From Candidatus Omnitrophota bacterium (GTDB taxonomy: Bacteria; Omnitrophota; Gorgyraeia; Gygaellales; Profunditerraquicolaceae): DNA of 64,000 nucleotides. The stretch covers positions 10,422-74,421 of the forward strand of contig JBDRKE010000033.1 of NCBI GenBank assembly GCA_043814315.1, written 5' to 3'. The translations under genes were made by a program, and so were the position numbers. Below the pieces are notes generated by a model, which saw nothing but the letters and a program-made list of their open reading frames with translations, searched no databases and was not told where the DNA came from. The number at the start of each line of letters is the position of its first letter. The first letter of the stretch is position 1. Positions 4,542 to 43,587 of this stretch are shown in pieces.

Positions 4542-6194
4542 ATGCGTTCCGATAAGATTAAAAAAGGATTAGAGAGGGTTCCGCACCGCGCTCTTTTGCA
4601 TGCTACGGGTTTGAGCAGAAAAGATCTGAAAAGGCCCTTTATCGGGGTGGCAACCTCTTTTACGGACCTCATCCCCGGCCATATCGGTATGCGAGACTTA
4701 GAGCGCTTCATTGAGCGCGGGATTTGTTACGGCCAGGGCGTGCCGTTTTTCTTCGGCGTGCCCGGGATCTGCGACGGCATCGCCATGGGGCATTTAGGGA
4801 TGTGTTACCCGTTAGCCTTAAGAGAGATCGTGGCGGATACGATTGAGACGGTTTGTAATGCCCATAGCCTCGACGGGATCGTGTGCCTGACGAATTGCGA
4901 TAAGATCACGCCGGGCATGCTGATGGGTGTGGCACGCCTTAATATCCCCGCGATTATCTTGACGGCAGGCCCTATGATGTCTGGCCGTTTTCGACAGAAA
5001 AAGTTAGCTTTTGTGCATGACACCTATGAAGCCCTGGCCAGGGCAAAAAAAGGAGAAATATCTTCGCAAGAATTATCTTGTTTAGAAATGGAGGCTTGTC
5101 CCGGGGCAGGTTCCTGCCAGGGCCTCTACACGGCGAATACCATGGCCTGTTTAACCGAAACCTTAGGGATGTCTTTGCCGGGATGCGCAACGGCCTTAGC
5201 GGTTTCAGCTAAGAAGCGTAGAATCGCCCAAGCCAGCGGTGAGCGTATCGTGGAATTGGCGAAAAAAAATATTAAACCTTTGGATATCATCAATCAAAGG
5301 TCTTTGGAAAATGCCATTACCGTGGATATGGCCCTGGGCGGCTCAAGCAACACGGTTTTGCACCTTATGGCCATCGCCCATGAGACGGGAATAGAATTGG
5401 ATCTTAAAACATTTGATAAAATCAGCAAGCATACCCCGCACATCACAAACCTAGAACCCGCCGGGCCTCACTTTATGGAAGATTTAGAATATGCCGGAGG
5501 AATCCCTGCCGTGCTTAGAAGACTAAAGAGCAGATTAAACAACGCGATGACTCTTAGCGGTAAAAGAATATTTGATATCGCGGATGATGCCGTGATCTCT
5601 GACGAGGAAGTGATTCGTTCCTTTGAGCGCGCTTATCATAAGCAGGGCGGTATTGCCGTGTTGTTTGGGAATCTTGCGCCTGATGGAGCCGTGGTCAAGC
5701 AGGCGGCCGTCAGTCCCAAGATGATGCGATCCAGCGGCAAGGCTAAAGTTTTTAACCGCGAAGAAGAAGCCATGCAGGCGATTTTGAATAAGAAGATAAA
5801 AGCAGGGGATGTGGTTGTTATCCGCTACGAAGGCCCCAGCGGAGGCCCGGGCATGAGGGAAATGCTGGCTCCCACCTCTGCGATTGTGGGGATGGGCTTG
5901 GCTGAATCCGTGGCCCTGATTACCGACGGAAGGTTCTCCGGCGGCACCCAAGGCCCCTGCATCGGGCATATTTCCCCTGAGGCTTCCAGCCGCGGCCCCC
6001 TTGCGATTTTGAAGGACGGTGATATAATCAGCATAGATATACCGAATAGAAAAATAGAGGTTAAACTAAATAAAACCGAAATTGAAAAAAGATTTAAAAA
6101 TTGGAAACCTGTTTTGCCGAAGATTAAATCAGGGTATCTGGGAAGGTATTCTAAACTGGTCAGTTCGGCGGATAAAGGAGCCATTTTAGAATGA
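4542..6194 (+). CDS. ilvD: dihydroxy-acid dehydratase
   Basis: 550 aa with [19 protein letters not shown] and GRFSGGT motifs. The TGA stop overlaps the ilvB ATG. Confidence 0.95.
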
Positions 6195-7453
6195 CAGGCG
6201 CACAAATCTTAATAGAGTGTTTGAAGCGCGAAGGGGTCAAGGTCATGTTCGGCTATCCCGGAGGCCAGGTCCTGCCTATTTTTGATAATCTTTATGATTC
6301 GGATATAAAGTTTATCCTCACCCGTCATGAGCAGGGCGCTGCCCATGCCGCTGAGGGATATTCTCGGGCCACGGGTAAGGTGGGGGTGTGCATTGCCACA
6401 TCCGGCCCGGGGGCTACAAATCTGACGACAGGATTGGCGAATGCCTTTATGGACTCCATAGCCATGGTGGCCATTACAGGACAAGTCAAATCTTTTTTGA
6501 TCGGCAACGATGCTTTTCAGGAAGCCGATGTCACGGGTATCACCCGGCCCGTAACCAAGCATAATTATCTGGTGAAGGATGCCAAAGATTTGGCCAGGAT
6601 CGTGCGGGAGGCTTTTTATATCGCCTCAAGCGGAAGGCCCGGCCCTGTGTTAATCGATATTCCTTCCGATATCCAGATGCAGGATATTGAATTCATCTGG
6701 CCTGAGAAGATTCAGATACGTAGCTATAAGCCCACTTATTTCGGACACCCCGGCCAGATCAAAAAAGCAGCTAAGCTTATTGCCAGCGCTAAAAAACCGG
6801 TTATTTATGCCGGAGGCGGAGTTATCAGTTCAGGCGCGCACCTTGTGCTTCGGGAGCTTGCCGAAAAAATCCAGACGCCGGTGACAACCACGCTTATGGG
6901 GATGGGCGGGTTTCCTGACACGCATAAGCTTTCCCTGCAGATGCTGGGCATGCACGGCACTGCCTATGCCAATCATGCGATTATGGAGGCAGATTTGATT
7001 ATTTCGGTGGGCGCGCGTTTTGATGACCGCGTGACCGGCAGGCTCGATTCCTTTGCGCCGGGAGCCAAGATCATCCATATCGATATCGACCCTTCCTCCA
7101 TAAGTAAGAACGTCAAAGTGGATGTGCCTATCGTAGGAGATGCGAAGAATATCGTGGGCGAATTATTGGAGCAGATCAAGAAGGTGCCTGATACCTCGGA
7201 GTGGTTAAAGACGGTTGAGGGATGGAAGAAAAAATATCCCATGAAATATCTGGATGACGATAAACTTCGGCCTCAATATGTAGTGGAACAGCTTTATGAG
7301 GTAACCAAGGGAAAGGCTGTCATCACCACCGAAGTCGGCCAAAACCAGATGTGGGCAGCGCAGTGGTATAAGTATACCTTGCCCCGTACTTTTATTTCCT
7401 CAGGGGGGGCTCGGTACGATGGGGTTTGGTTTTCCTGCGGCCATGGGTGCTAA
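6191..7453 (+). CDS. ilvB: acetolactate synthase large subunit, N-terminal fragment (frame lost in G7 run at 7403-7409)
   Basis: Family-typical sequence up to FISSGG, after which the frame breaks. The reading continues in the next ORF. Confidence 0.85.
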
Positions 7454-15144: not shown

Positions 15145-15429
15145 ATGATTCAAGAGGTTATGACCACAGAGCAGTTAGCCAAATATTTGCAATTGGATGA
15201 ACAGACCATTTACCGCAAGGCACGTGCGGGCCAGATTCCGGCAGTACATATCGGAAAGACTTTAAGGTTTAAGAAAGAAGTAATCGACGGCTGGCTGAGG
15301 ATTTCTTCTCTAAGGTGGACAGCCAAGAAAAGGCAGTCCTTAAGGGGCTGGGCAGAGGAATTTGCCAAGGAAAAGGGACTTAAGGAAGAAGATTTAGAGA
15401 AGGCAATCTCCAAGAGAAGATATCATTGA
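15145..15429 (+). CDS. excisionase-family HTH DNA-binding protein (putative antitoxin)
   Basis: MTTEQLAKYLQLDEQTIYRKARAGQIPAVHIGKTLRF is the excisionase/MerR-like HTH pattern. It overlaps the PIN gene by 4 nt. Confidence 0.75.
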   Translation: MIQEVMTTEQLAKYLQLDEQTIYRKARAGQIPAVHIGKTLRFKKEVIDGWLRISSLRWTAKKRQSLRGWAEEFAKEKGLKEEDLEKAISKRRYH

Positions 15430-15833
15430 TGATAAAAGTCATCCTTGATACTAATGTTCTAATCTCTAGTCTTTTCTGGAAAGGTTCTTCCCGCCATATC
15501 GTAGATTTAGCCATCGCCAGTAAGATCAAATCCGTAACTTCCCCTGAAATAATGGAAGAGGTGGAGGCGGTTTTATACGAAGACTTTCCGCAGGTGCCTT
15601 ATGAGAAAATTGAATGGATCATCAGAGACATTTTAAGTTATTCTCAGTTGATCATACCGCGCCGGGTTACGGTGAAAAGATTAAGGGATTCCAAGGACAC
15701 GAAAATCATTGCCTGTGCTTTAAACGCGAAAGCGGAATATATCGTTACAGGAGACAAAGACCTTCTTGCGTTGGAGAAATATGCAGAAGTAAGGATACTA
15801 ACCCCCAAAACCTTCTTAGATTTATTCAAATAG
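15426..15833 (+). CDS. PIN-domain toxin (putative ribonuclease)
   Basis: VILDTNVLISS at the N-terminus and YIVTGDKDLL near the C-terminus, the conserved acidic PIN residues. Confidence 0.78.
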   Translation: MMIKVILDTNVLISSLFWKGSSRHIVDLAIASKIKSVTSPEIMEEVEAVLYEDFPQVPYEKIEWIIRDILSYSQLIIPRRVTVKRLRDSKDTKIIACALNAKAEYIVTGDKDLLALEKYAEVRILTPKTFLDLFK

Positions 15834-16203: not shown

Positions 16204-19200
16204 TTATCCCTTCCCTAAAAATACCTCCCTTAATTCCTGCGCGCTTCCCATGGATTCTAACACTACCAGGATGTCTCTGAGTGTGGCGTCAGTTGAGCAG
16301 CAGCTTTCTTCCTCTGACCTTAAGATATCCGATATGCAAAAAAGAATTTTATCCCTATCCTGCGTTATGCTCTCTTGAGCGCAGGATGTCTGTATATATT
16401 CCTTTATTCTCTCCGAAGAGGGAGTAATCCCTGAACTTGCCATCCTTGCAATCTGCCGCCACTCCTCATCAAGGTTAGTGCTAACCAAATTCCGAATAGC
16501 CGAAGAACTAATATTTACGCTTAAGTTAGTCATCGCCTGGGTGACGATGGGGAGAGAGCGGAAATCGATTCCTCCAAATCTTTGTTCCATCGCCGAGCTG
16601 GCGGTCTCTGGCTCAAGCGGCGAGCCGGAGACGGGATTATTTCCCAATGGAGGAGAATTTTTGATAGAACCGTCTCCTTTTTCTCTCGCAAGAACCTCCG
16701 TCATCCTCATAAAAAGCAGCATTTTTTCAAGCTGAGAGATTGCTACTTTAAGTTTCTCGCCCTCCAGAGGTTTGCTTTTAAAAATCTCATCAAGTTTATA
16801 TGTAAAAGTGCTGAAAAATACATTTACGGCAAAACGATAATCACTGCAGATACTCTCCGGAGTTCCACTCCTTTGAAATTCCTTTTCTGCTCTATCTAAA
16901 ACTTCCCCTGCCTTCATTCTTTTCATGGTATCCTGTAAGGCATTGACGGCATCCGCGTTCCAGGTTAGTGCCGCCTCGTAAATCTTGATTGCCTGCTGCC
17001 AGAATAAATATGAACCCCGGGTATGATAATAAATATCCCTCATGACCGGATTATCAGCGAAAGGAAGCCTATACAGCCTGGTTTCCTGACGCGAAAGAAG
17101 AGACGGCACATAATACAGGCGATAACTAATAGTTTTCCCGTCTTTTTGAGGGATTCCAATACCAGCCCACTCAAAGCCGTTCTCTAACCAATCCCTAAAA
17201 TCACTGTCACTAAATTCAAGCCCTCCGTCGGGATGATAATGAAAATAAAAAACCGGGGTTGCTTTTTTTTGTTCCACTTCTTTTTGTACGCGCATTTGAT
17301 ATCTCATTGTCCGTGCATGAGAATAATCCGTTATAATCAGATCCCAGTCGTTTTCTAAACTTAATCCTCCCCTTTCCGTTATTATGCGCTGAACAGCTAC
17401 GATATTTTCTGGCAAAGTTATGGGTGCCAGTTTTGAAATTATAGCTACAGCTTCCCCCCAGTCATATTGGTCAGAGAAAATAATAGAATCGCCTTCTTTG
17501 TCCGATATCAGTGTAAGCCTACCTTGAGAATTAACTTCTAAGCGTAAATCATATGACTCTGCTATAGCACGCAAAACCTTTTCTTTAAATCCTCCGATCA
17601 TATACCGTTCGACCAATTTTGTCTCTACATAAAGAATTTTATTTCTTCTGGGTAAAATCAGATCCACCAGTATATCCTTATTGCCCTCTTTTCTAACCAA
17701 GCCCACAGTCGATAATTCAGCATCTCTATATATATCCAAATAGCGCCGATGGAATTCATTCATTTGTTCTATAACTTGAGCTTCCGCATATAACAGCTCA
17801 TCTTCATATATTCCAAAAACCGAAATCAAAGGTCTTGCTGCTGTTGACCCCATTGCCGAAGAGGCTTTAACAGGCCCACTCTCCATCACCGAGCTGGCGG
17901 ACTCTGGCTCAAGCGGCGAGCCGGAGGTTTCCTTGGAAAAATCAGAACCGTCCCTATTTCCTGCAAGATCAATCTCGCTAGTTTCTACATTAACTTGAAC
18001 TGCTATCATTCTTGCCTTATTACGTTTGTCAAAAAGAGTTATCGTTATTGTAGGGGCATAAATCTCCTCTTTCGTGACAGGCTTGACGATGCCACTGTAA
18101 GACAGATAAATAAAATCATCAACGGAAATCCCAAAAAGATCAACAACTTCATGGCGCTTGCTTTCGCTCACCAAAACACCAAAAGCTTCATAAGCTTTTT
18201 TTTCATTTTCTACTGTATCCTTGTTTGGCTCCATGGCTTTAGCAGCTTTATAACTTGCCTCCTGAGCCAAATATTCGTCCATCAAAGGAGCAAGACCTGG
18301 ATTTTCTTTGTGATTTTTTATATGTGTTGCTTCATGAGCTATCATCCGGGCTAACCAAGCATCTCTAGCTTCTTGTGAGGGTAACGCCTCTGAATTATTA
18401 TAGTAGTCATACCCTACAACAATCAATTCCAAGTCCCCAAAAATCGCCATACCCCAGTCATCATTCATGCCCTTCAAAAAGAACAACACCGGCACAAAAG
18501 AAGTACTACTGGAAAGAATATTCTCCGCCATCAAGTAATCATAAGCTTGCCTGACCAGTGTTTCGTTCTGATTAGAAAGATTAATGGATGTCTTTAAATC
18601 CTCTTCAGAAACTGAACCGAGTCTGTTGCTTACCGCATCTTGAAGTTCTTTTAAAGAAAATTCCACGCCTTGTAAAATGCTATCCTTTTTATTTTCACCG
18701 CTTTTCTCATAACTACCTCCACAGCCTAAAAAACCGAATGTCGCCCCTACTGCCAAAGCCTTTATTAATGTCCGTGTCTGTTTAAGAAATTCTCGCCTTG
18801 AAAGATCTGACGATTCTCCCACCGCCGAAGAAGCTATGGACGTCTGTTCTTGGGGGCGCAACTCTACTTTATCTATTTCGCTCGACATGGTTGTAGCACC
18901 CACTTTAATTTCTATAACATTATGATTTAAACTCTGAGGAAGGCGACTTGCTATCGAAGACGATACAGCTCCTGTTTTAGGATTATGCACTACTTCACCT
19001 AATCCAGGCATACGTCCTAAGTCAAATATTTCTCCTCCACTAAAATAACTCCTTATTGTCTGACCATAGGGTGTATAAACTGGCTCCTTGATATTATATT
19101 CTCCATCTTTAAATGACTTCTGGTATTCTTTAAAATAGGGAGTCTTTGACCAGTTTTCTTTGGAGGTAAGGTTAGTTAAGTCTTTTCTATCTATGAGATG

Positions 19201-19539
19201 GGAATAAAGGCCATCTTTACTGTAGTAGCGTGCCTTAAACCACTGGGCCATAATCAAAGAATAATAAACCTGCCTTAAGGAAGCGTAGCGCTTGGAGGAG
19301 TTTACTTCTTTGGTAAGTTTGGGGATGATGAGCTCGCGGATGAGCTGTGTAGAATATTCGTTCAGGATTTTGGAGCGTTCATCCTTAAACTCATAGTTCC
19401 CTGCACCCTGCACCATCCACCCTGCACCCTGGCCACTCTCCTGTCCCCTCAAATAATCCTGCTCTAACATGACCTTTAAAGTGGCTTTATAAATATAGGC
19501 CGAGTCCGTCGTCTCGCGGATAATGATCTCTCCCGGCAC
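16204..19539 (-). CDS. giant modular secreted protein paralog, main fragment (downstream of in-frame TGA)
   Basis: The first ~170 aa and last ~125 aa align to the 38398-43587 product. Internally it has SRREFLK...FLGC, HEATH, HYHx7SxxD and two 44-nt SGSPLEPE junctions. Confidence 0.75.
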   Translation of the reverse strand: MPGEIIIRETTDSAYIYKATLKVMLEQDYLRGQESGQGAGWMVQGAGNYEFKDERSKILNEYSTQLIRELIIPKLTKEVNSSKRYASLRQVYYSLIMAQWFKARYYSKDGLYSHLIDRKDLTNLTSKENWSKTPYFKEYQKSFKDGEYNIKEPVYTPYGQTIRSYFSGGEIFDLGRMPGLGEVVHNPKTGAVSSSIASRLPQSLNHNVIEIKVGATTMSSEIDKVELRPQEQTSIASSAVGESSDLSRREFLKQTRTLIKALAVGATFGFLGCGGSYEKSGENKKDSILQGVEFSLKELQDAVSNRLGSVSEEDLKTSINLSNQNETLVRQAYDYLMAENILSSSTSFVPVLFFLKGMNDDWGMAIFGDLELIVVGYDYYNNSEALPSQEARDAWLARMIAHEATHIKNHKENPGLAPLMDEYLAQEASYKAAKAMEPNKDTVENEKKAYEAFGVLVSESKRHEVVDLFGISVDDFIYLSYSGIVKPVTKEEIYAPTITITLFDKRNKARMIAVQVNVETSEIDLAGNRDGSDFSKETSGSPLEPESASSVMESGPVKASSAMGSTAARPLISVFGIYEDELLYAEAQVIEQMNEFHRRYLDIYRDAELSTVGLVRKEGNKDILVDLILPRRNKILYVETKLVERYMIGGFKEKVLRAIAESYDLRLEVNSQGRLTLISDKEGDSIIFSDQYDWGEAVAIISKLAPITLPENIVAVQRIITERGGLSLENDWDLIITDYSHARTMRYQMRVQKEVEQKKATPVFYFHYHPDGGLEFSDSDFRDWLENGFEWAGIGIPQKDGKTISYRLYYVPSLLSRQETRLYRLPFADNPVMRDIYYHTRGSYLFWQQAIKIYEAALTWNADAVNALQDTMKRMKAGEVLDRAEKEFQRSGTPESICSDYRFAVNVFFSTFTYKLDEIFKSKPLEGEKLKVAISQLEKMLLFMRMTEVLAREKGDGSIKNSPPLGNNPVSGSPLEPETASSAMEQRFGGIDFRSLPIVTQAMTNLSVNISSSAIRNLVSTNLDEEWRQIARMASSGITPSSERIKEYIQTSCAQESITQDRDKILFCISDILRSEEESCCSTDATLRDILVVLESMGSAQELREVFLGKG

Positions 19540-19542
19540 AAT

Positions 19543-20088
19543 TCAGGGCCGGGTGAGAGTGGGAATGGTTATATTCTCATAGCCGTAGATTTCCTCTGCC
19601 TTTTTATAGAGTTTATTCCAGTATTCTTTTCCTTCTGCGGTTTCAGGTGAAGTGAACTTGGCGGTGTCTTTCTTGAGTTGCAGGTCGGTTTCCAGCATGA
19701 TCCTGCCGACATCCGTCCGTTCCAAGAGAGGGTCTATGATATTATCAGGAGAATCAGGCCGTAAGTTCACCCAGAAGAAGTCGTTGGGCAGAGTGAGGCC
19801 GATAAGGAAATAGTTTAGGAGCGTCTTGGTTGTATCCTCAATTTCCCGGGGCTGGGGGTTCTTGAGGCTGCCTTTGTCTAGAAAAAATTGGAAGCTGTTA
19901 TTGAGATTATCGTATTGAAGGTACCTTAAATGCAGGGGGCGAAAGGTGTCCGGAACTAAGGAATTATGCAGTGCTGCTAAGTGGCCGGCAATATTCAACT
20001 GGCCTGCAACCTGGGCAAAGCCGGATTGCTGGAAGATGAGCAGAAGGCACAATAATAGAGATAATAATTTTGTTATTTTCCCTGACAT
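19543..20088 (-). CDS. giant modular secreted protein paralog, N-terminal fragment (signal peptide + conserved domain), ends at TGA replacing conserved Trp
   Basis: 181 aa colinear with residues 1-187 of the 38398 product. ...LTRP-TGA-IVPGEIIIRE here corresponds to ...LTRPWIVPGEIIIRE in the paralog. Confidence 0.75.
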   Translation of the reverse strand: MSGKITKLLSLLLCLLLIFQQSGFAQVAGQLNIAGHLAALHNSLVPDTFRPLHLRYLQYDNLNNSFQFFLDKGSLKNPQPREIEDTTKTLLNYFLIGLTLPNDFFWVNLRPDSPDNIIDPLLERTDVGRIMLETDLQLKKDTAKFTSPETAEGKEYWNKLYKKAEEIYGYENITIPTLTRP

Positions 20089-32937: not shown

Positions 32938-34125
32938 ATGAAAGATTTCTTAGAGGGTTCTCGGGCGGTTGCCGAGACCGTGAAACTTTGTAAGCCGGGG
33001 GTGATTTCCGCTTACCCCATTACGCCCCAGACGCACATCGTCGAAGAATTAGCCAAGATGGTGGCTAACGGCGAATTAGGCTCTTCGTTTGTCAATGTGG
33101 AGAGCGAGCATTCCGCTGCCTCCGTGGTCCTGGGAGGGGTAGCTGCAGGCGTGCGTTCTTACACGGCGACCAGCTCACAAGGCCTGCTTTATATGGGAGA
33201 GGTGATTTTTAATATCGCGGGGATGCGCCTGCCGCTCGTTCTGACTTGTGCCAACAGGGCTATCTCAGCCCCCATCAATATTTGGAACGACCAGCAGGAT
33301 TCCGTATCGCTGCGGGATGCCGGATGGATACAGTTGTATGCGGAGAATATCCAGGAAACAGTTGACCTTCATCTTATGGCCTATCGCATCAGCGAAGACA
33401 AGTCTATGATGCTTCCGGTGATGGTGTGCATGGATGGTTTCATTTTAACGCATGGCATGGAGGCCGTGGATATTCCTGAACAGGATAAGGCGGATAAGTT
33501 CCTGCCTGCTTACAAACCTCTCTATAAGCTTGATCCTGCCGCGCCTTTGACTATGGGGTTGCTGGCAGACCCTGATTATTACATGGAAACACGTTTTGCC
33601 ATTCAGGAGACCCTGAAGGCAGCCTTAAATTTTATCCCTAAGGTCAGCCAGGAATTTAAAAGCGTTTTCGGCCGGGATTATAAAGATTGTTTAATAGAAG
33701 AGTATGGCACCAGGGATGCCCAGAAGGTGATTGTGGCCATGGGTTCTGTCTGCGGCACCATCAAGGAAGTGGTGGACCAGATGCGGCAGAAAGGTAAAAA
33801 GGTCGGTTTGTTAAAGATTGTCTCTTACCGGCCGTTTCCTTACGCGCAGGTTTATCAGGCACTCAAGAATGTGCCGCAGGTTGCGGTATTAGATAAAGCC
33901 GTTTCTTTGGGGGCATGGCCTCCTTTAGCCGTGGAGATCAAGGCCGCCTTCTGCGGAAAAAAGAAGGCGCCTAAGGCCGTTGGTTCTTTTGTCGCAGGTT
34001 TAGGCGGCAGGGATATAACGCTTGATTCGATAAGGGAGATATTCAGAAGGCTCACGCAAAAAGAAATCAACTGGGAGTTTATCGATTTAAAACCCGAGTT
34101 GCTCAGGGAGGAATATGGAGAATAG
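32938..34125 (+). CDS. porA: 2-oxoacid:ferredoxin oxidoreductase alpha subunit
   Basis: 395 aa with GSRAVAE...AYPITPQT...ESEHSA motifs. Confidence 0.9.
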   Translation: MKDFLEGSRAVAETVKLCKPGVISAYPITPQTHIVEELAKMVANGELGSSFVNVESEHSAASVVLGGVAAGVRSYTATSSQGLLYMGEVIFNIAGMRLPLVLTCANRAISAPINIWNDQQDSVSLRDAGWIQLYAENIQETVDLHLMAYRISEDKSMMLPVMVCMDGFILTHGMEAVDIPEQDKADKFLPAYKPLYKLDPAAPLTMGLLADPDYYMETRFAIQETLKAALNFIPKVSQEFKSVFGRDYKDCLIEEYGTRDAQKVIVAMGSVCGTIKEVVDQMRQKGKKVGLLKIVSYRPFPYAQVYQALKNVPQVAVLDKAVSLGAWPPLAVEIKAAFCGKKKAPKAVGSFVAGLGGRDITLDSIREIFRRLTQKEINWEFIDLKPELLREEYGE

Positions 34126-35611
34126 AGTTTTGTTTAAACCGGGCCATACCGCATGTGCGGGTTGCGGCCAGTCTTTGGCTGCCCGTTTAGTCTTAGAAGC
34201 AGCCGGCCCCAATACCATCGTGGTGAATAATACGGGCTGCCTGGAGGTGTTTTCCACAAAATATCCGGAATCCGCATGGGGCGTGCCCTGGATTCACTCT
34301 CTGTTCGAGAATGCCGCGGCTGTGGCTTCGGGAGTTGAATCCGCCTTGATTTATTTAGGTAAGAAAGAGGGGATTAATGTTATTGCCCAGGCAGGTGACG
34401 GTGGTACTGCGGACATAGGCCTGCAGGCTTTATCCGGCATGTTGGAGCGGGGGCATGATATTTTATACGTCTGTTACGACAATGAGGCCTATATGAATTG
34501 TTTAAGCATATCCTCTTCAGTCATGACAAAAGAGGGTCTTAAAAGAATAACAGAAATAAAAATTGGTGACGAAATTTGTGCTTTTGACCAAAATAACCAT
34601 CAGATGGTCATAAAGAAATGTAGTGGAGTATTTGATAATGGTAGAAAAGAAGTATTTGAGCTCAAGACCCTCTATTATTCTATAAAGGCAACAGCCAATC
34701 ATCCCTTTTTGGTTTTACAGAGAAATGAAAAAGGAGGGCATAGCAGTTTAGTTTGGAAGATGCTTAAGGATGTGGATATAGCGACTGGTGATAGAGTTGT
34801 AACATTAAAAAGCATGAATGACGATACTCCTTTTCGTTTCCTAGACTTGCATAAAAGAATGTCCGTCAGTAAAATATCCACTTTTCTTCCACAGGAACAA
34901 AAAGAGAAATTTGTTGGAGGTTTGATGCTGGCTGAAGAAGAGTTCTTGCCAGATAATAAATTTTTCCAGACTGAAGAAGTATTAAGCATAAAGTCAAAAG
35001 GAGTGGAGCCAACTTTAGATTTAAGGATAGAAGAGGAGCATAATTTTATTGCCGATGGCATCGTCGTTCATAACACGGGCATTCAACGCAGCGGCCTCAC
35101 CCCTTTTCATTCCGCGACAACGACAAGCCCCTTTGGCCGTCAATCCTTTGGAAACATCCGGCCTAAAAAACCTATGCCTGAAATTGCCCTGGCGCACGGC
35201 ATCCCTTATGTGGCCACGACCTCTGCGGGCTTCATGCAGGATTTGCAGAGAAAAGTCAAAAAGGCCCTTTCTATCAAAGGCCCCAAATACCTGCAGATTC
35301 ATGTCCCTTGTCCTTTGGGCTGGAGGCATGAGCCAAATCTAACGCTGGCCGTGGCAAAATGTGCGGTTGAGACGGGCCTTTATCCTTTAATTGAATATGA
35401 AGGAGGCGCCCTTGTGTCCCGTCGGCAGATAACACCGAAACCCGTTCAGGAGTATCTGAAAGTTCAGGGCAGATTCAAGCACCTCTTGAATGCGCCCGAG
35501 GAGATCAGGAAGATCCAGGAAATAGCGGATCATAATATCGAGAAGTACGGACTAAGTGAAAAATCACAAATTCCAAATTCCAAATCACAAACAAATCCTA
35601 ATACCCAATGA
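34115..35611 (+). CDS. porB: 2-oxoacid:ferredoxin oxidoreductase beta subunit (TPP-binding), interrupted by an intein
   Basis: CAGCG, GDGG and YDNEAYMN|TGIQRSG extein motifs. 498 aa, versus about 300 aa once the insert is removed. Confidence 0.9.
   Translation: MENRVLFKPGHTACAGCGQSLAARLVLEAAGPNTIVVNNTGCLEVFSTKYPESAWGVPWIHSLFENAAAVASGVESALIYLGKKEGINVIAQAGDGGTADIGLQALSGMLERGHDILYVCYDNEAYMNCLSISSSVMTKEGLKRITEIKIGDEICAFDQNNHQMVIKKCSGVFDNGRKEVFELKTLYYSIKATANHPFLVLQRNEKGGHSSLVWKMLKDVDIATGDRVVTLKSMNDDTPFRFLDLHKRMSVSKISTFLPQEQKEKFVGGLMLAEEEFLPDNKFFQTEEVLSIKSKGVEPTLDLRIEEEHNFIADGIVVHNTGIQRSGLTPFHSATTTSPFGRQSFGNIRPKKPMPEIALAHGIPYVATTSAGFMQDLQRKVKKALSIKGPKYLQIHVPCPLGWRHEPNLTLAVAKCAVETGLYPLIEYEGGALVSRRQITPKPVQEYLKVQGRFKHLLNAPEEIRKIQEIADHNIEKYGLSEKSQIPNSKSQTNPNTQ
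34499..35074 (+). mobile_element. mini-intein (192 aa) in PorB
   Basis: It starts CLSISSSVMT, has block B TANHPF, and ends EHNFIADGIVVHN followed by +1 Thr. The flanks join to the conserved YDNEAYMN-TGIQRSG. The insert is AT-richer than the exteins. Confidence 0.88.
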
Positions 35612-38397: not shown

Positions 38398-41300
38398 ATG
38401 TTACGCAAAACAACCTCATTAGTTTTAACTCTTGGTTTATTCTTCCAACAATTAAGCTTTGCGCAGGTAGCTGTGGACCTTAATATCGCCGGGCACCTTT
38501 CCAGGATGGCTTCTGGGATGGCCGTAGAAAAATTCAGGCCTGTGCACCTGCGCTATTTTTCCTACGACAGCCTAAGTGATAATTTCAAGGTGCTCCTGGA
38601 TAAAGGAGACCTCAAGCAGTTGGATCCTCTTAAGGCCGAAGAATCAGCCAGGCAGCTTTTGAGTTACTTTTTGATAGGGGTCACTATGCCGGATGAGGCG
38701 TTTTGGGTGAACCTTAGGCCTGATTCAGAGAACCAGATTATAGACCCTTACCTGGAAAAGACAGATGTAGGTAAGATTATGCTTAAGGCGGACCTTCAGC
38801 TTAAGAAGGATACCGCAGCCCTCACTTCTCCCAAGACTCCCGAAGGCAGGGAATATTGGAACCGGCTCTATAAAAAAGCAGAGGAGCTCTATGGTTATGA
38901 GGCGGTTAATATACCTGCCTTAACCAGGCCCTGGATAGTCCCCGGTGAAATCATCATCAGGGAATCCCAGGAGAGCGCCTATATCTATAAGGCGACTCTT
39001 AAGGTGATGCTGGAGCAGGATTATTTAAAGGGGCAGGGGAGTGGCCAGGGTGCAGGGTGGATGGTACAGGGTGCAGGGAATTATGAGTTTAAGGATGAGC
39101 GCTCCAGGATTCTGAATGAATACTCAACCCAGCTTGTACGCGAACTCATCGTTCCGAAACTCACCAAAGAGGTCAATAGCGCCAAGCGCTATGCCGCAGT
39201 CAGGCAGGTGTATTATTCACTCATCCTTTCCCGCTGGTTCAAGCAGCGTTTTTCCGGAAAAAGCGGCACCTATGCTTCTCTCATCAATACCGAAGACCTC
39301 ACGAACCTGCTTTCCAGGGAACCCTGGTCAAAGACCGATTATTTCAAGCAATACCAGAAGTCATTCGCAGAAGGGGAATATAACATCCAAGAGCCGGTTT
39401 ACACTCCCACAGGCCAAACGATACGGAGTTATTTCAGCGGAGGGATGGCACTGCAAGCTATCAATACAGGTAATCGTTTTACAGTTGAACCTAACCTGGC
39501 CTTGTTTAAAACAGGGTTTCCTTTGCAAGGTGATGCTAAAGGAATTATTAGCGCCGGCTCGCCGGTGACGGAAGCGCAGGCATTAGCGAAAGAGTTTGCT
39601 GAATCAATGGCAGCTAATGACATTATTAATTCTGACCTTAAGGCGCAGGAGGAGGTAATCTCTATCTTGCTGCCCCTCATAGAAGAGTTCTCCCTTCAGT
39701 TCGGGCGCGTTTCTGTTACAGAGGAAGCATTTGATTATTATAGATGGATTCAAGGTCTTCAGGCTGACCCTAAATATGTGATGGAATTACAAAATCCGGC
39801 ATTTTATTCAAAGAAAGCCAGGGAGTTTGTCAATGAAAGGTTTGATAATATCCCCACTGTTGTTGAGAATAAATTATCAAGGTTGGCCCTTGAGGAACCG
39901 GAGCTGGTCCAATTCAAAGATGAGTTAATATTTTGGCTGCAGCAGGTTATAAGTGACGGCGTGCGCAGCGACCTTCCTGATGATTCCAAAAAAGTGAGGA
40001 TATCGGCAATATTGAGCCTACCTAACTATATCGAAGCTTCCCCCCAGAAATACCCTCCTGAGATGAATTCCCTAATAAATTCTTTTCTGGATACGCATAG
40101 TGTGGAGAAGATAAGGGCAATTGAGTCAACAAACAATAAGGAATTGGGCGAGATACTAAACATACTTACATCCAGCGTGCTTGATACCAGCCTCGTAGCT
40201 TCCGCCGGATCGCCGGTGGAATCGGAAGCTGCTTTAGTGCAACAGATAAAGGACCGGTTGTGGCGTGTAATTAAGGAAACCGAGGATTCGCTACTGTTTA
40301 ATGGTACAAAATATTTGCCTAAAAAATTAAATCAAGCTGCAAGTTTGAAAGAATTAGGCAATTTTCGTGGTGAGTTTTTTGGAGCAATCGATGAACTAAT
40401 AGCATGGAATAAAGAGAATTCCACGGTATTAAAATCTTCTGAATACAACATTGGCAGGTTGAATCAGCTAAAGAACTCTATAGTTGATATCTTACCCCAA
40501 CTCTTTGCGCAGGAAATAAATAATCTATTTAACGAAAATGTGAAATTTGAGATCTATAAAGGCGAAAGTGACGGCAATTATTATTTTAAAATGTGGGACA
40601 GAATAATAAATCAGCCCAATGTTTCCAGCGCCACAGACGGAGGTTTTTATTCCGGTAAACCCAACCTGCATAGATTGTTTATAGCCCTACTAGAATCCGG
40701 CTTTGCCCTAGATCCTAAAACCAATACGATTACCTTTAGTAACAGCCAGGCAGTCGATGAGATTAAAACCCAGATTAAAGCTCATATGCCTGAATCCGCC
40801 GCCGGCCCTTCGACTCGCTCCGCTCGCTCAGGGTCAGCGCAGCCCGATGAAGACAAAGCCGCCGGCTCGCCGGTTCAAACGGAAACTGAAGATCTGAGAA
40901 AGCTTAAGAACCTTCTTCTTTTGAAGATGGAAGACCTGACGCCTGAACATCGAAAAATCATAGGAGACTCATCTCTTGAATTGCCTTTAGGCGGAACGAC
41001 TTCATTAAAAGAATTTAATGAATCCCTTATTAAGTCTATTAAAGAAGTCGACGGCTTGATAACACGAAGCGAAGAGATTATCAAACATTATAAAGATATC
41101 CTCTCCTACAGGTGGTTAGAAAACTCAGCGAAAGATAATTTAGAGGCGTGGGGTTCATTAAAAAATATCTTAGAAGAGATATCAAAAGAATTATCAAAAT
41201 ACGCATCAATCTATCCGGCCATATTCGTGAAGGGCTTTTTAACAACTGGCTTAATGGATCAGGCCCAGGCGCCGGACGAAGGTGCCGCCGGCTCGCCGGT

Positions 41301-43587
41301 GGTTTACCCCTGGGGCAGGCAATTGTCGCCTTTGCCCAGATCTGGTGAAAACATCGTGAGCGCATTAAAAAGGTTGATGGAAAATCCCGTAACCAAAATG
41401 ATTACATTGAAAGTAGAGAATAGTTTGTATCAGAGAATAGAGCTCAACATAGAAAGCATCACAAGCGAAAAAGATAAGAGCACAATAGCGGTTTCGCCGC
41501 GCGATTTAAATGAAATATTGAACAACCTTAAAGCATCTGGTGAATTTGAGTTATCACAAGTAGGAAAAGGTTATGATACCTATATAACGGCAACTCGCAA
41601 GGCCGCCTACCTTTTGCGCTTTGTTCTTGAAAGACTCGAAAGAGTAAAGAGAGCAGAAGAAATCTTGAAAAATGAGTTGAAGAACTTTAATCATGATACG
41701 GGCTTGTCACGTTTTCCGTGGCGAAGTATATCTTACTTATCGGGATATGAAATCAATATGAATTATAATGATAAAATCAGAGAAGCAAGGGTTTATTTGC
41801 TGGGTAAAGGAGGAGAGGAGTTGTTTCAACTTGTTTATCCTGAAACAAAATTGGACGAGTTGGATAGAAAAGTAATCAAGCTGGATTTAACAGATGCAGT
41901 CAATGCAGAGCTTTGGGCCTTAAAGCAGTTAGAATCAGAATTGGAAGAAGCGAAGGCTTTGCAGGGGCGCGCAACGACCCTCGCGACGCAGGCTTCTGCC
42001 GCCGGCTCGCCGGTGAGGGAGAGTAACCATAACCATTTCACCGTGTCGTATGAGGTCACTAATGGTCAGTTTTCAGATAAGGATTTACGAGAAGATATCC
42101 AAAACTTGAAAGAACATCTTCGTAGTCAAGATACAGGCACGATAACATTTGCAAGAGAATGGATCGAAGGGGTTGTTCATCTTGAGGGGGGTCTATTCGC
42201 TCCTTATAATGCCGACGCAGAACTAGGTTTGTTTATTCAATTCCTGGCTTCTTTTATCCCTGGAACAAATATCCATAGCGCTTTAGGCGACAGTGATAAT
42301 TTAGACCTGGTTCGTAGCTTAAAATTAAGCCTTGTTCATAAAGAAGGCAAGGCGCCCAAAGGGGCAACTGTCGCTATCTCAGCTCTTAGCAAACAGATCG
42401 AGCAAGGAGTGGTAACCTTTAGCTTTAATGGCGCCGACTATTTGACGCAGGCAAAGGACAAATATATCTTTGATATAAAAGATATTCCTACTATGGTTGA
42501 AGAAGAATTAACTGCTAACGGCTCTTATGTTACATTAAAAAATCTGTTAGTTACGCATCTGCAGAAGGTTGTAGCATTGCATCAAGAAGGCCGAGCAACC
42601 GCTCAGAATGTTATATCTGCCATAAAAGCTCTTGCGGAATATATTCGCCTAGTAAGAAGCACGGGCATTGATTTAGGGGCGTGGAATAAAGTTACCGCTG
42701 GTCAAATTAACTGGCCTTTAAATCAAGTGCCGGAATTGGATTTTATTCTGTCTGAGTTAGTTAGCAGAATGCGGGGAAACTATAATGATAGAGGGCAAGA
42801 GCTGGACAAAATATTAAATTCACTTGAGAATGTTATTAAGGAAGCTGCCGCCGGCTCGCCGGTGCAGGAGTCAAACGCTATGATTATGGAACGGGCATTA
42901 AATGTTTTTCAAGACCCTCAAAAATTAAGTGAATGTTATGTAGATAATCAAATAATGGGAAAGGGTGAGGGGAAAGAAAGAAGAATACGTTACCTCTCAG
43001 GTATTGCTGAAGGTTATAAGATTTCTTTGCGCTTTGATGCAGACCACAACCACACCATGATTACATTAGTGAATCCTGAAAGTAGAATTGTAATAGCGCG
43101 ACCTTCTGTCAGTGACGCTGTTTATTATTTCGAAGTCGATAGAGACGTTATACTGTATCGATTAATTAACGAGATGAAAGATAAACTGGGCATTTCTTCT
43201 TCGCCGGTACAGGCGGTGTCTACAGATATTGCAGATGAAGGGGTAGGAGGAATTGATTTTCGTGCCCTGCCTATGACCATCCAGCCCATGGGGAGCTTCC
43301 AGGGGTTGAATTTCAGCTTACCGAAGTTAAGCCAGGCAGAGCTGGAGAGGATAAATGTGGATACGGAGCTGCGCCAGATAGAGCAAATGGTAGACTCCGG
43401 TATTACGCCTTCCGGAGCAAGGATTAAAGAGCTTATCGCTGCCTGCGCGCAAAAAGGCAAAATTAGCGCTTACGCCGACCATTTATTGCTTTGCCTCGTA
43501 GATATATGTAAACTGCAGGAGGAGGAGGCGAGCGAGACTTCGGCGGAGTTGAGGGAAGCGCTGGTTATAGTTGATGCGGTGAGCTAG
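38398..43587 (+). CDS. giant modular secreted protein (1729 aa), family unrecognised
   Basis: Signal peptide (LVLTLGLFFQQLSFAQV), then a ~350-aa conserved N-domain, six unrelated modules separated by AAGSPV junctions, and a conserved ~125-aa C-domain (GGIDFRALP...SGITPS...). SD gggagg. Confidence 0.85.
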   Translation: MLRKTTSLVLTLGLFFQQLSFAQVAVDLNIAGHLSRMASGMAVEKFRPVHLRYFSYDSLSDNFKVLLDKGDLKQLDPLKAEESARQLLSYFLIGVTMPDEAFWVNLRPDSENQIIDPYLEKTDVGKIMLKADLQLKKDTAALTSPKTPEGREYWNRLYKKAEELYGYEAVNIPALTRPWIVPGEIIIRESQESAYIYKATLKVMLEQDYLKGQGSGQGAGWMVQGAGNYEFKDERSRILNEYSTQLVRELIVPKLTKEVNSAKRYAAVRQVYYSLILSRWFKQRFSGKSGTYASLINTEDLTNLLSREPWSKTDYFKQYQKSFAEGEYNIQEPVYTPTGQTIRSYFSGGMALQAINTGNRFTVEPNLALFKTGFPLQGDAKGIISAGSPVTEAQALAKEFAESMAANDIINSDLKAQEEVISILLPLIEEFSLQFGRVSVTEEAFDYYRWIQGLQADPKYVMELQNPAFYSKKAREFVNERFDNIPTVVENKLSRLALEEPELVQFKDELIFWLQQVISDGVRSDLPDDSKKVRISAILSLPNYIEASPQKYPPEMNSLINSFLDTHSVEKIRAIESTNNKELGEILNILTSSVLDTSLVASAGSPVESEAALVQQIKDRLWRVIKETEDSLLFNGTKYLPKKLNQAASLKELGNFRGEFFGAIDELIAWNKENSTVLKSSEYNIGRLNQLKNSIVDILPQLFAQEINNLFNENVKFEIYKGESDGNYYFKMWDRIINQPNVSSATDGGFYSGKPNLHRLFIALLESGFALDPKTNTITFSNSQAVDEIKTQIKAHMPESAAGPSTRSARSGSAQPDEDKAAGSPVQTETEDLRKLKNLLLLKMEDLTPEHRKIIGDSSLELPLGGTTSLKEFNESLIKSIKEVDGLITRSEEIIKHYKDILSYRWLENSAKDNLEAWGSLKNILEEISKELSKYASIYPAIFVKGFLTTGLMDQAQAPDEGAAGSPVVYPWGRQLSPLPRSGENIVSALKRLMENPVTKMITLKVENSLYQRIELNIESITSEKDKSTIAVSPRDLNEILNNLKASGEFELSQVGKGYDTYITATRKAAYLLRFVLERLERVKRAEEILKNELKNFNHDTGLSRFPWRSISYLSGYEINMNYNDKIREARVYLLGKGGEELFQLVYPETKLDELDRKVIKLDLTDAVNAELWALKQLESELEEAKALQGRATTLATQASAAGSPVRESNHNHFTVSYEVTNGQFSDKDLREDIQNLKEHLRSQDTGTITFAREWIEGVVHLEGGLFAPYNADAELGLFIQFLASFIPGTNIHSALGDSDNLDLVRSLKLSLVHKEGKAPKGATVAISALSKQIEQGVVTFSFNGADYLTQAKDKYIFDIKDIPTMVEEELTANGSYVTLKNLLVTHLQKVVALHQEGRATAQNVISAIKALAEYIRLVRSTGIDLGAWNKVTAGQINWPLNQVPELDFILSELVSRMRGNYNDRGQELDKILNSLENVIKEAAAGSPVQESNAMIMERALNVFQDPQKLSECYVDNQIMGKGEGKERRIRYLSGIAEGYKISLRFDADHNHTMITLVNPESRIVIARPSVSDAVYYFEVDRDVILYRLINEMKDKLGISSSPVQAVSTDIADEGVGGIDFRALPMTIQPMGSFQGLNFSLPKLSQAELERINVDTELRQIEQMVDSGITPSGARIKELIAACAQKGKISAYADHLLLCLVDICKLQEEEASETSAELREALVIVDAVS
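39550..43212 (+). repeat. interspersed in-frame junction repeat GCCGCCGGCTCGCCGGTG (7 sites)
   Basis: Exact 18/18 at 41284, 41998 and 42847; 17/18 at 40858; 16/18 at 39550 and 40201; core tcgccggt at ~43201. Confidence 0.9.

Follow-up and report, generated by a model that had tools for sequence, protein, structure and literature searches.

An in-frame TGA at an invariant tryptophan codon of a Candidatus Omnitrophota secreted-protein gene, probably a very recent nonsense mutation in a redundant family

Introduction

Cases in which UGA has been reassigned from stop to Trp (translation table 4) are reviewed in PMC13462651 and PMC13092985, and the accessible parts of these two articles do not mention Omnitrophota as a reassignment case. 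A search of the literature found nothing on stop-codon recoding in this phylum. Where UGA is a stop it can leak: in E. coli, competition between Trp-tRNA(Trp) and RF2 leads to a read-through of about 2–4%, with heterogeneity from cell to cell (PMC10570021), and tRNA-Trp variants with a 4-bp anticodon stem, which boost the reading of UGA, occur in diverse bacteria (PMC13092985). Omnitrophota are also the source of very long multi-enzyme proteins. The subject of the two reports on these (bioRxiv 10.1101/2023.11.21.568195; 10.64898/2026.06.07.730766) is, in their accessible parts, proteins of at least 10,000 aa, and the ~350-aa N-terminal module that defines the family studied here is not described in those parts.

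The gene considered here is located in a 64 kb stretch of DNA from the Omnitrophota assembly GCA_043814315.1, and this whole stretch is referred to below as the window. An earlier note on the window had pointed to an in-frame TGA in a minus-strand gene that has a TGG-bearing paralog, and had offered as explanations a very recent nonsense mutation giving a silent or archival copy, UGA read-through by tRNA-Trp, or a sequencing or assembly error.

Results

The interrupted gene and its intact paralog

The interrupted gene starts with an ATG immediately 3' of an in-frame upstream stop, is preceded by a sigma-70-like motif, and specifies, in order, a signal peptide, an N-terminal family domain, a variable middle and a C-terminal family domain. 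The gene, its parts and the intact paralog are as follows.

16204..20088, minus strand: whole interrupted gene, from ATG at 20088 to TAA at 16206..16204, 1,294 codon positions (translation)
19545..19543, minus strand: in-frame TGA, codon 182, at the invariant-Trp position (sequence and translation)
19546..20088, minus strand: 5' fragment of 181 codons, with the signal peptide and the first half of the N-terminal domain
16204..19542, minus strand: 3' fragment, 1,112 sense codons open past the TGA (ORF list)
19033..20088, minus strand: conserved, family-defining N-terminal module, residues 1-352, with the TGA in its middle (homolog searches and alignment)
18781-18801, minus strand: Tat-like SRREFLK motif in the gene middle, residues 430-436
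18322-18336, minus strand: HExxH motif in the gene middle
17200-17241, minus strand: exact JAMM-type HxH-x7-S-xx-D motif in the gene middle, with a weak Prok-JAB match
16207..16575, minus strand: conserved C-terminal module (GGIDFRSLP... to the end), common to the paralog and to P0124, an intact family member of 1,471 aa
38398..43587, plus strand: intact paralog of 1,729 aa (GenBank ABIG31_05380, MFH1458576.1), with TGG at 38932-38934

The minus strand at 19560..19524 reads ACT CTC ACC CGG CCC TGA ATT GTG CCG GGA GAG, and with Trp in place of the stop the stretch across the site is ...IPTLTRPWIVPGEIIIR... The paralog, which aligns here without gaps, reads ACC AGG CCC TGG ATA GTC CCC GGT GAA (T R P W I V P G E). 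Reading the minus strand at 19545..19543 against the paralog TGG confirms the in-frame TGA at a conserved Trp codon that the earlier note had reported, and the codon comparison confirms its single G-to-A difference. The further claim, that the frame stays open and conserved for another 1111 codons, stands as regards the open frame (1,112 sense codons, the 1,111-aa ORF beginning at a GTG) but not as regards conservation: past the TGA, homology with the paralog is limited to ~170 codons, being the rest of the N-terminal domain, and to the last ~120 codons, which form the C-terminal domain, while the ~800-codon middle is unrelated to the paralog. Nor does the label 'giant' suit a gene of 1,294 codons by the standards of the phylum Omnitrophota.

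The ORF list splits the gene into 19543..20088 (181 aa) and 16204..19539 (1,111 aa, from the GTG two codons past the TGA). These flanking ORFs are collinear across the stop with the uninterrupted homologs, both the paralog and P0124. The similarity to P0124 is modular and includes a ~300-aa cassette with 63% identity to part of that protein. In the interrupted gene the SRREFLK motif is followed by a hydrophobic stretch and then LGC, an arrangement kept at residues ~703-760 of P0124, and judged by its sequence this region looks like an entire exported pre-protein embedded as an internal cassette.

In GenBank, the 5' half is a separate CDS, ABIG31_05250 (MFH1458551.1), for a hypothetical protein of 181 aa. 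The 3' half is represented by ABIG31_05245 (MFH1458550.1), also a hypothetical protein, which takes in the last 1,017 codons from a TTG start at 19257; with this start, 94 in-frame codons that belong to the conserved domain are lost from the CDS. The record gives the locus no pseudogene flag. The annotation needs correction, as ABIG31_05250 and ABIG31_05245 are pieces of one interrupted gene and not two proteins.

The family defined by the N-terminal module

Residues ~1-352, comprising the signal peptide and the module, match hundreds of proteins at 50–73% identity, with E-values down to 1e-181, and the named sources are almost all Candidatus Omnitrophota MAGs. A HMMER search of 1.84 billion cluster representatives returned 7,419 matching representatives (5,233 at E <= 1e-30). 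Among the 150 matches listed of these 7,419, the module is nearly always N-terminal and the proteins range from ~410 to more than 6,000 residues. Shorter family members also occur, and complete stand-alone versions of the module (342-352 aa) are found on long contigs, for example at positions 5330-6382 of locus L032. Single MAGs can carry several copies of the family. The bodies fused to the module vary, and include HEAT repeats, methyltransferases, PGK, HD domains, phosphoglucomutase and others.

Neither the N-terminal nor the C-terminal module is matched by a Pfam or NCBIfam model. The N-terminal module of the paralog (38398-39459, plus strand) was modelled with AlphaFold2 (pLDDT 82.7, pTM 0.77), and a Foldseek search of the PDB with this model returned no significant match. 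In the model, the Trp opens a predicted beta-hairpin with strands at 178-189 and 193-205 (paralog numbering), so that the break is predicted to interrupt a folded domain rather than to coincide with a domain border.

Conservation of the Trp codon

Trp occupies the stop position in all 120 homologs of the protein alignment (120/120), and the flanking R-P and the following I-V-P are likewise invariant. At the DNA level, a degenerate pattern for T-R-P-(TGR)-I-V-P-[DGN]-E-I-I matched at least 118 loci in GTDB representative genomes; among the matches listed, 121 of 121 copies have TGG and none has TGA (0/121). With TGA fixed, the pattern had no match across 241 million metagenome records. In the protein database, the only short family fragment that ends at the stop residue is that of this genome. 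Exact-protein look-ups with the 181-aa fragment, the 1,017-aa CDS and two neighbouring genes returned no independent copy of the locus, the middle region, which is specific to this gene, gave no relative when genome_contigs and metagenome_contigs were searched for related loci, and a short query centred on the stop site gave nothing above 75% identity. By these comparisons the stop is private to the GCA_043814315.1 assembly, and, Trp being invariant in the homologs and in the sampled genomic copies, its replacement by a stop is a match beyond what chance would be expected to give.

Age of the lesion

The remainder of the gene shows no decay: over 3.3 kb there is neither a further stop nor a frameshift, and the frame stays open as far as the normal C-terminal domain. 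A test was made of 111 further alignment columns with at least 95% conservation in the family. The interrupted gene has a violation in none of them (0/54 upstream and 0/57 downstream of the stop), while intact homologs show a mean of 0.75 plus 0.91 violations. Because there is no further decay, the lesion should be very young, still polymorphic or not real. Over the 170 codons 3' of the stop, the interrupted gene and the paralog give a dN/dS of ~0.06 with synonymous sites saturated, a ratio that, as far as the alignment of the two copies goes, shows long-term purifying selection and is uninformative on the time since the stop arose.

That the lesion is not real, i.e. that a TGG of the organism is shown in the MAG contig with a wrong or minority base through a sequencing, assembly or consensus artefact, is considered unlikely. 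Such an error would leave the gene otherwise perfect, as is seen, and the consensus of a MAG can take up minority variants; no independent assembly was found that confirms the base. The ~48 long ORFs of the 64 kb are intact, however, with full-length profile matches and no frameshifts, and real broken copies occur in other Omnitrophota genomes. In a tblastn search of the N-terminal module against the 118 loci listed, 86 copies span the module uninterrupted and many others are cut off by the ends of their loci, while four copies among ~120 in the loci listed, or ~3%, are damaged, all at other sites. One of these (L048) has a TAG at the position of Gln-20, in the signal peptide, and three (L026, L096 and L011) have frame breaks inside the N-terminal module. 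With ~3% of copies broken and with few positions at which a substitution can create a stop, a real mutation has a higher prior than a substitution error. By the same figure, one broken copy in the present genome is unremarkable.

Meaning of TGA in the window

The stops of the 48 long ORFs in the window are 24 TAA, 13 TGA (interrupted ORF included) and 11 TAG. The TGA-ending ilvD, aroE, pgeF, dnaB and pth match NCBIfam profiles up to the profile ends, and in pilD, also TGA-terminated, which matches Pfam domains, the end of the ORF is the end of the profile. Profile searches thus verified, for these six genes and through a weak RmuC-like match, the earlier statement that TGA is a normal stop elsewhere in the window. 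Since TGA-ended ORFs stop where their family profiles end, the standard code applies, and an alternative code (table 4 or table 25) is ruled out by the 12 other ORFs that end on TGA, six of them at profile ends. No other in-frame TGA or split ORF was seen in the 64-kb window, which is otherwise densely coding. Selenocysteine is ruled out as well: the homologs have Trp at the site, not Cys or Sec, and neither Rfam nor folding gave a SECIS match. The sole tRNA gene in the window is for tRNA-Gln, the tRNA-Trp gene lying outside it, and prfB was not seen in the 64 kb.

Gaps in the ORF map are occupied by small genes, such as an overlapping pair just downstream of the interrupted gene (15145-15429 and 15426-15833, plus strand). 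One gene of the pair is for a DNA-binding protein (HTH_17, E = 4e-13) and the other for a protein with a PIN_3 domain (E = 5e-19), and from these matches the pair has the look of a toxin-antitoxin module. Elsewhere in the window, a gene for a PorB-like pyruvate synthase beta subunit (34115-35611, plus strand, 498 aa) is interrupted by a ~185-aa intein: the PorB NCBIfam match falls into two parts (residues 3-131 and 318-477), and residues 137-320 match Pfam Intein_splicing (PF14890, E = 2e-12).

The local hairpin and read-through of the stop

The stop codon lies within a predicted local fold.

19527..19558, minus strand: local RNA/DNA hairpin, GC-rich, stem of 10 bp, one mismatch, -18.1 kcal/mol, UGA placed in the apical loop

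Its 91-nt context has a z of -2.8. An equally good fold is found at two of 120 homologous sites, the paralog site gives -4.7 kcal/mol, and the fold is the same with TGG or TGA. The hairpin was rejected as a read-through stimulator, being copy-specific, with the UGA in its loop and its 5' arm upstream of the stop; it would already be melted by the time the UGA enters the A site. The hairpin has an equivalent on the complementary strand, in whose loop the mutated base reads C, and it may be speculated that deamination of this single-stranded C gave rise to the G-to-A change. Rfam gave no relevant recoding element, and no stimulatory RNA structure was found 3' of the stop. In E. coli, an A after the UGA does not make one of the strongest contexts for termination.

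The read-through by tRNA-Trp proposed in the earlier note survives as possible, unselected background leakage. As a conserved or programmed event it does not, with TGA in none of the 121 copies among the matches listed and in none of the metagenome records scanned, and with no stimulator. There is a narrower form of the proposal, in which a low and possibly condition-dependent read-through by Trp-tRNA(Trp) is functional and the allele has been selected as an expression attenuator, and this is very unlikely. Near-cognate reading of UGA would insert the ancestral Trp, at rates that in E. coli reach ~2-4% with heterogeneity (PMC10570021) and that tRNA-Trp variants can boost (PMC13092985), and the downstream frame is intact and undecayed; but an intact frame is equally expected of a recent event, the same absence of TGA from relatives applies, TGA terminates at least 12 genes of the window and is nowhere else in frame, and the sole local structure, which matches no Rfam element, holds the UGA in a loop and is absent from relatives. 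A related idea, that the TGA is kept as an attenuator or switch, its effect being lifted by Trp read-through (possibly with an unusual tRNA-Trp or a weak RF2) or by gene conversion from the neighbouring paralog back to TGG, is given the same slight chance. If it were true, the TGA copy would act as an OFF allele that can be reversed, within a large repertoire of surface or secreted proteins.

Exchange between paralogs

The two paralogs share a patch of ~100 nt with ~92% nucleotide identity (19369-19467, minus strand, codons 208-240, and ~39010-39108, plus strand), against 50-70% elsewhere. The patch corresponds to a loop (SGQGAGWMVQGAGNYEF) that is variable in other family members and is likely to be a gene-conversion tract, from which it appears that the paralogs probably exchange sequence. 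The putative tract does not extend to the stop codon.

Linker elements conserved at the nucleotide level are carried at the module borders of both genes. In the minus-strand gene they take the form of a 45-nt direct repeat (16586-16630 and 17882-17926, 96% identity) that encodes SGSPLEPE(S/T)ASS. In the paralog the partly palindromic CGCCGGCTCGCCGGTG, which encodes (A)AGSPV, is present six times, and the intact relative P0124 has an AGSPLEE linker. Such elements could be cassette-shuffling junctions or processing sites. The copies in the paralog are located as follows.

39552-39572, 40203-40223, 40860-40880, 41286-41306, 42000-42020 and 42849-42869, plus strand: linker copies of the paralog

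In another reading, the interrupted gene would serve as a silent or archival reservoir that exchanges segments with expressed paralogs by gene conversion, as happens in antigenic or phase variation. Such a role, for which the ~92% patch and the repeated linkers at the module borders of both genes could be cited, is even less probable than selected read-through. The gene is complete, with its own start codon, signal peptide and upstream sigma-70-like motif, and is no promoterless cassette; its one point lesion lies outside the putative conversion tract; the stop site has neither a repeat nor a slippery tract that could make the change reversible; and for most of the gene body the neighbouring paralog has no counterpart. 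The 'silent or archival copy' attached to the nonsense mutation in the earlier note is therefore unsupported.

The possibility of two polypeptides

Re-initiation at GTG 19539 was rejected, as no SD-like sequence precedes this codon, while many genes of the window have clear AGGAG-type sites. Least probable of all is a functional split gene, in which the 181-aa N-terminal fragment and a product re-initiated at GTG 19539 or later act as two polypeptides: a GTG does lie two codons past the TGA, GenBank lists two CDSs and stand-alone N-domain genes occur elsewhere, but the break cuts a conserved domain where a predicted beta-hairpin begins, the stand-alone versions are whole domains of 342-352 aa and not halves, the GTG is without an SD-like sequence, the downstream product would have no N-terminal signal peptide, and the database has no further family fragment with its end at the stop residue.

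Discussion

The interrupted gene probably owes its stop to a genuine TGG-to-TGA nonsense mutation of very recent date, either fixed or segregating, in a redundant, multi-copy family of secreted proteins. This part of the earlier proposal fits all of the evidence, including the private nature of the stop on comparison with related genomes and the absence of other decay. A G-to-A transition would have placed a premature stop in one modular secreted member of the family, and RF2 would be expected to terminate translation at codon 182, inside a folded domain. The product would be a 181-residue fragment with a signal peptide, and probably nothing productive would be made from the downstream part. 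The allele is thus predicted to be null or strongly hypomorphic, either as a nascent pseudogene or as a variant that still segregates within the population sampled, and redundancy within the family probably makes the lesion tolerated. Because the rest of the gene is undecayed, the event would be very recent. Occasional near-cognate reading by Trp-tRNA(Trp) would restore the exact wild-type protein and may, as unselected leakage, soften the defect.

The stop itself means little, being one nonsense lesion in a redundant family and an ordinary event. What the site provides is a clear negative: UGA has its standard meaning in this Omnitrophota genome, and the site holds no conserved recoding signal. 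The family is of greater interest. It has thousands of members, almost only in Omnitrophota, that share a constant, secreted module of ~350 aa, and it may be worthy of its own follow-up, with a fold that has no PDB match by Foldseek and variable enzyme-like cassettes joined by linkers conserved at the nucleotide level.

With the long multi-enzyme proteins of Omnitrophota, as far as these are described in the accessible parts of the two reports, the family shares the phylum, a signal peptide and heterogeneous enzyme-like modules. HEAT, methyltransferase, phosphoglucomutase and HD modules are carried by signal-peptide proteins in both. The two genes of the window differ from them in size, as they encode proteins of only 1.3 and 1.7 kaa.

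Among systems in which UGA is translated, reassignment to Trp (table 4) is similar in that UGA stands where relatives carry Trp, but here there is one such occurrence in 64 kb, and TGA ends at least 12 genes, with ilvD, dnaB and pth among them. Bacterial selenocysteine recoding also combines an in-frame UGA with a nearby hairpin, but in the present gene the UGA is inside the loop, rather than having a hairpin that starts just 3' of it, and Rfam gave no SECIS match. The leaky termination at UGA in E. coli (PMC10570021) involves the same codon, and if that behaviour carries over, the inserted Trp would be the ancestral residue, so that a leak would regenerate the wild-type protein. Such regeneration by background leakage is generic to any TGG-to-TGA mutation, and, unlike a selected signal, the site is marked by no special context, structure or conservation.

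The closest likeness is to an ordinary nonsense pseudogene of a multi-copy family. In both, one point mutation turns a conserved sense codon into a stop, the homologs are uninterrupted, annotation yields two 'hypothetical proteins' and other copies of the family are broken elsewhere. The interrupted gene differs in showing zero secondary decay, which would place it at the youngest end of the range of pseudogene ages, or mark it as a variant not yet fixed.
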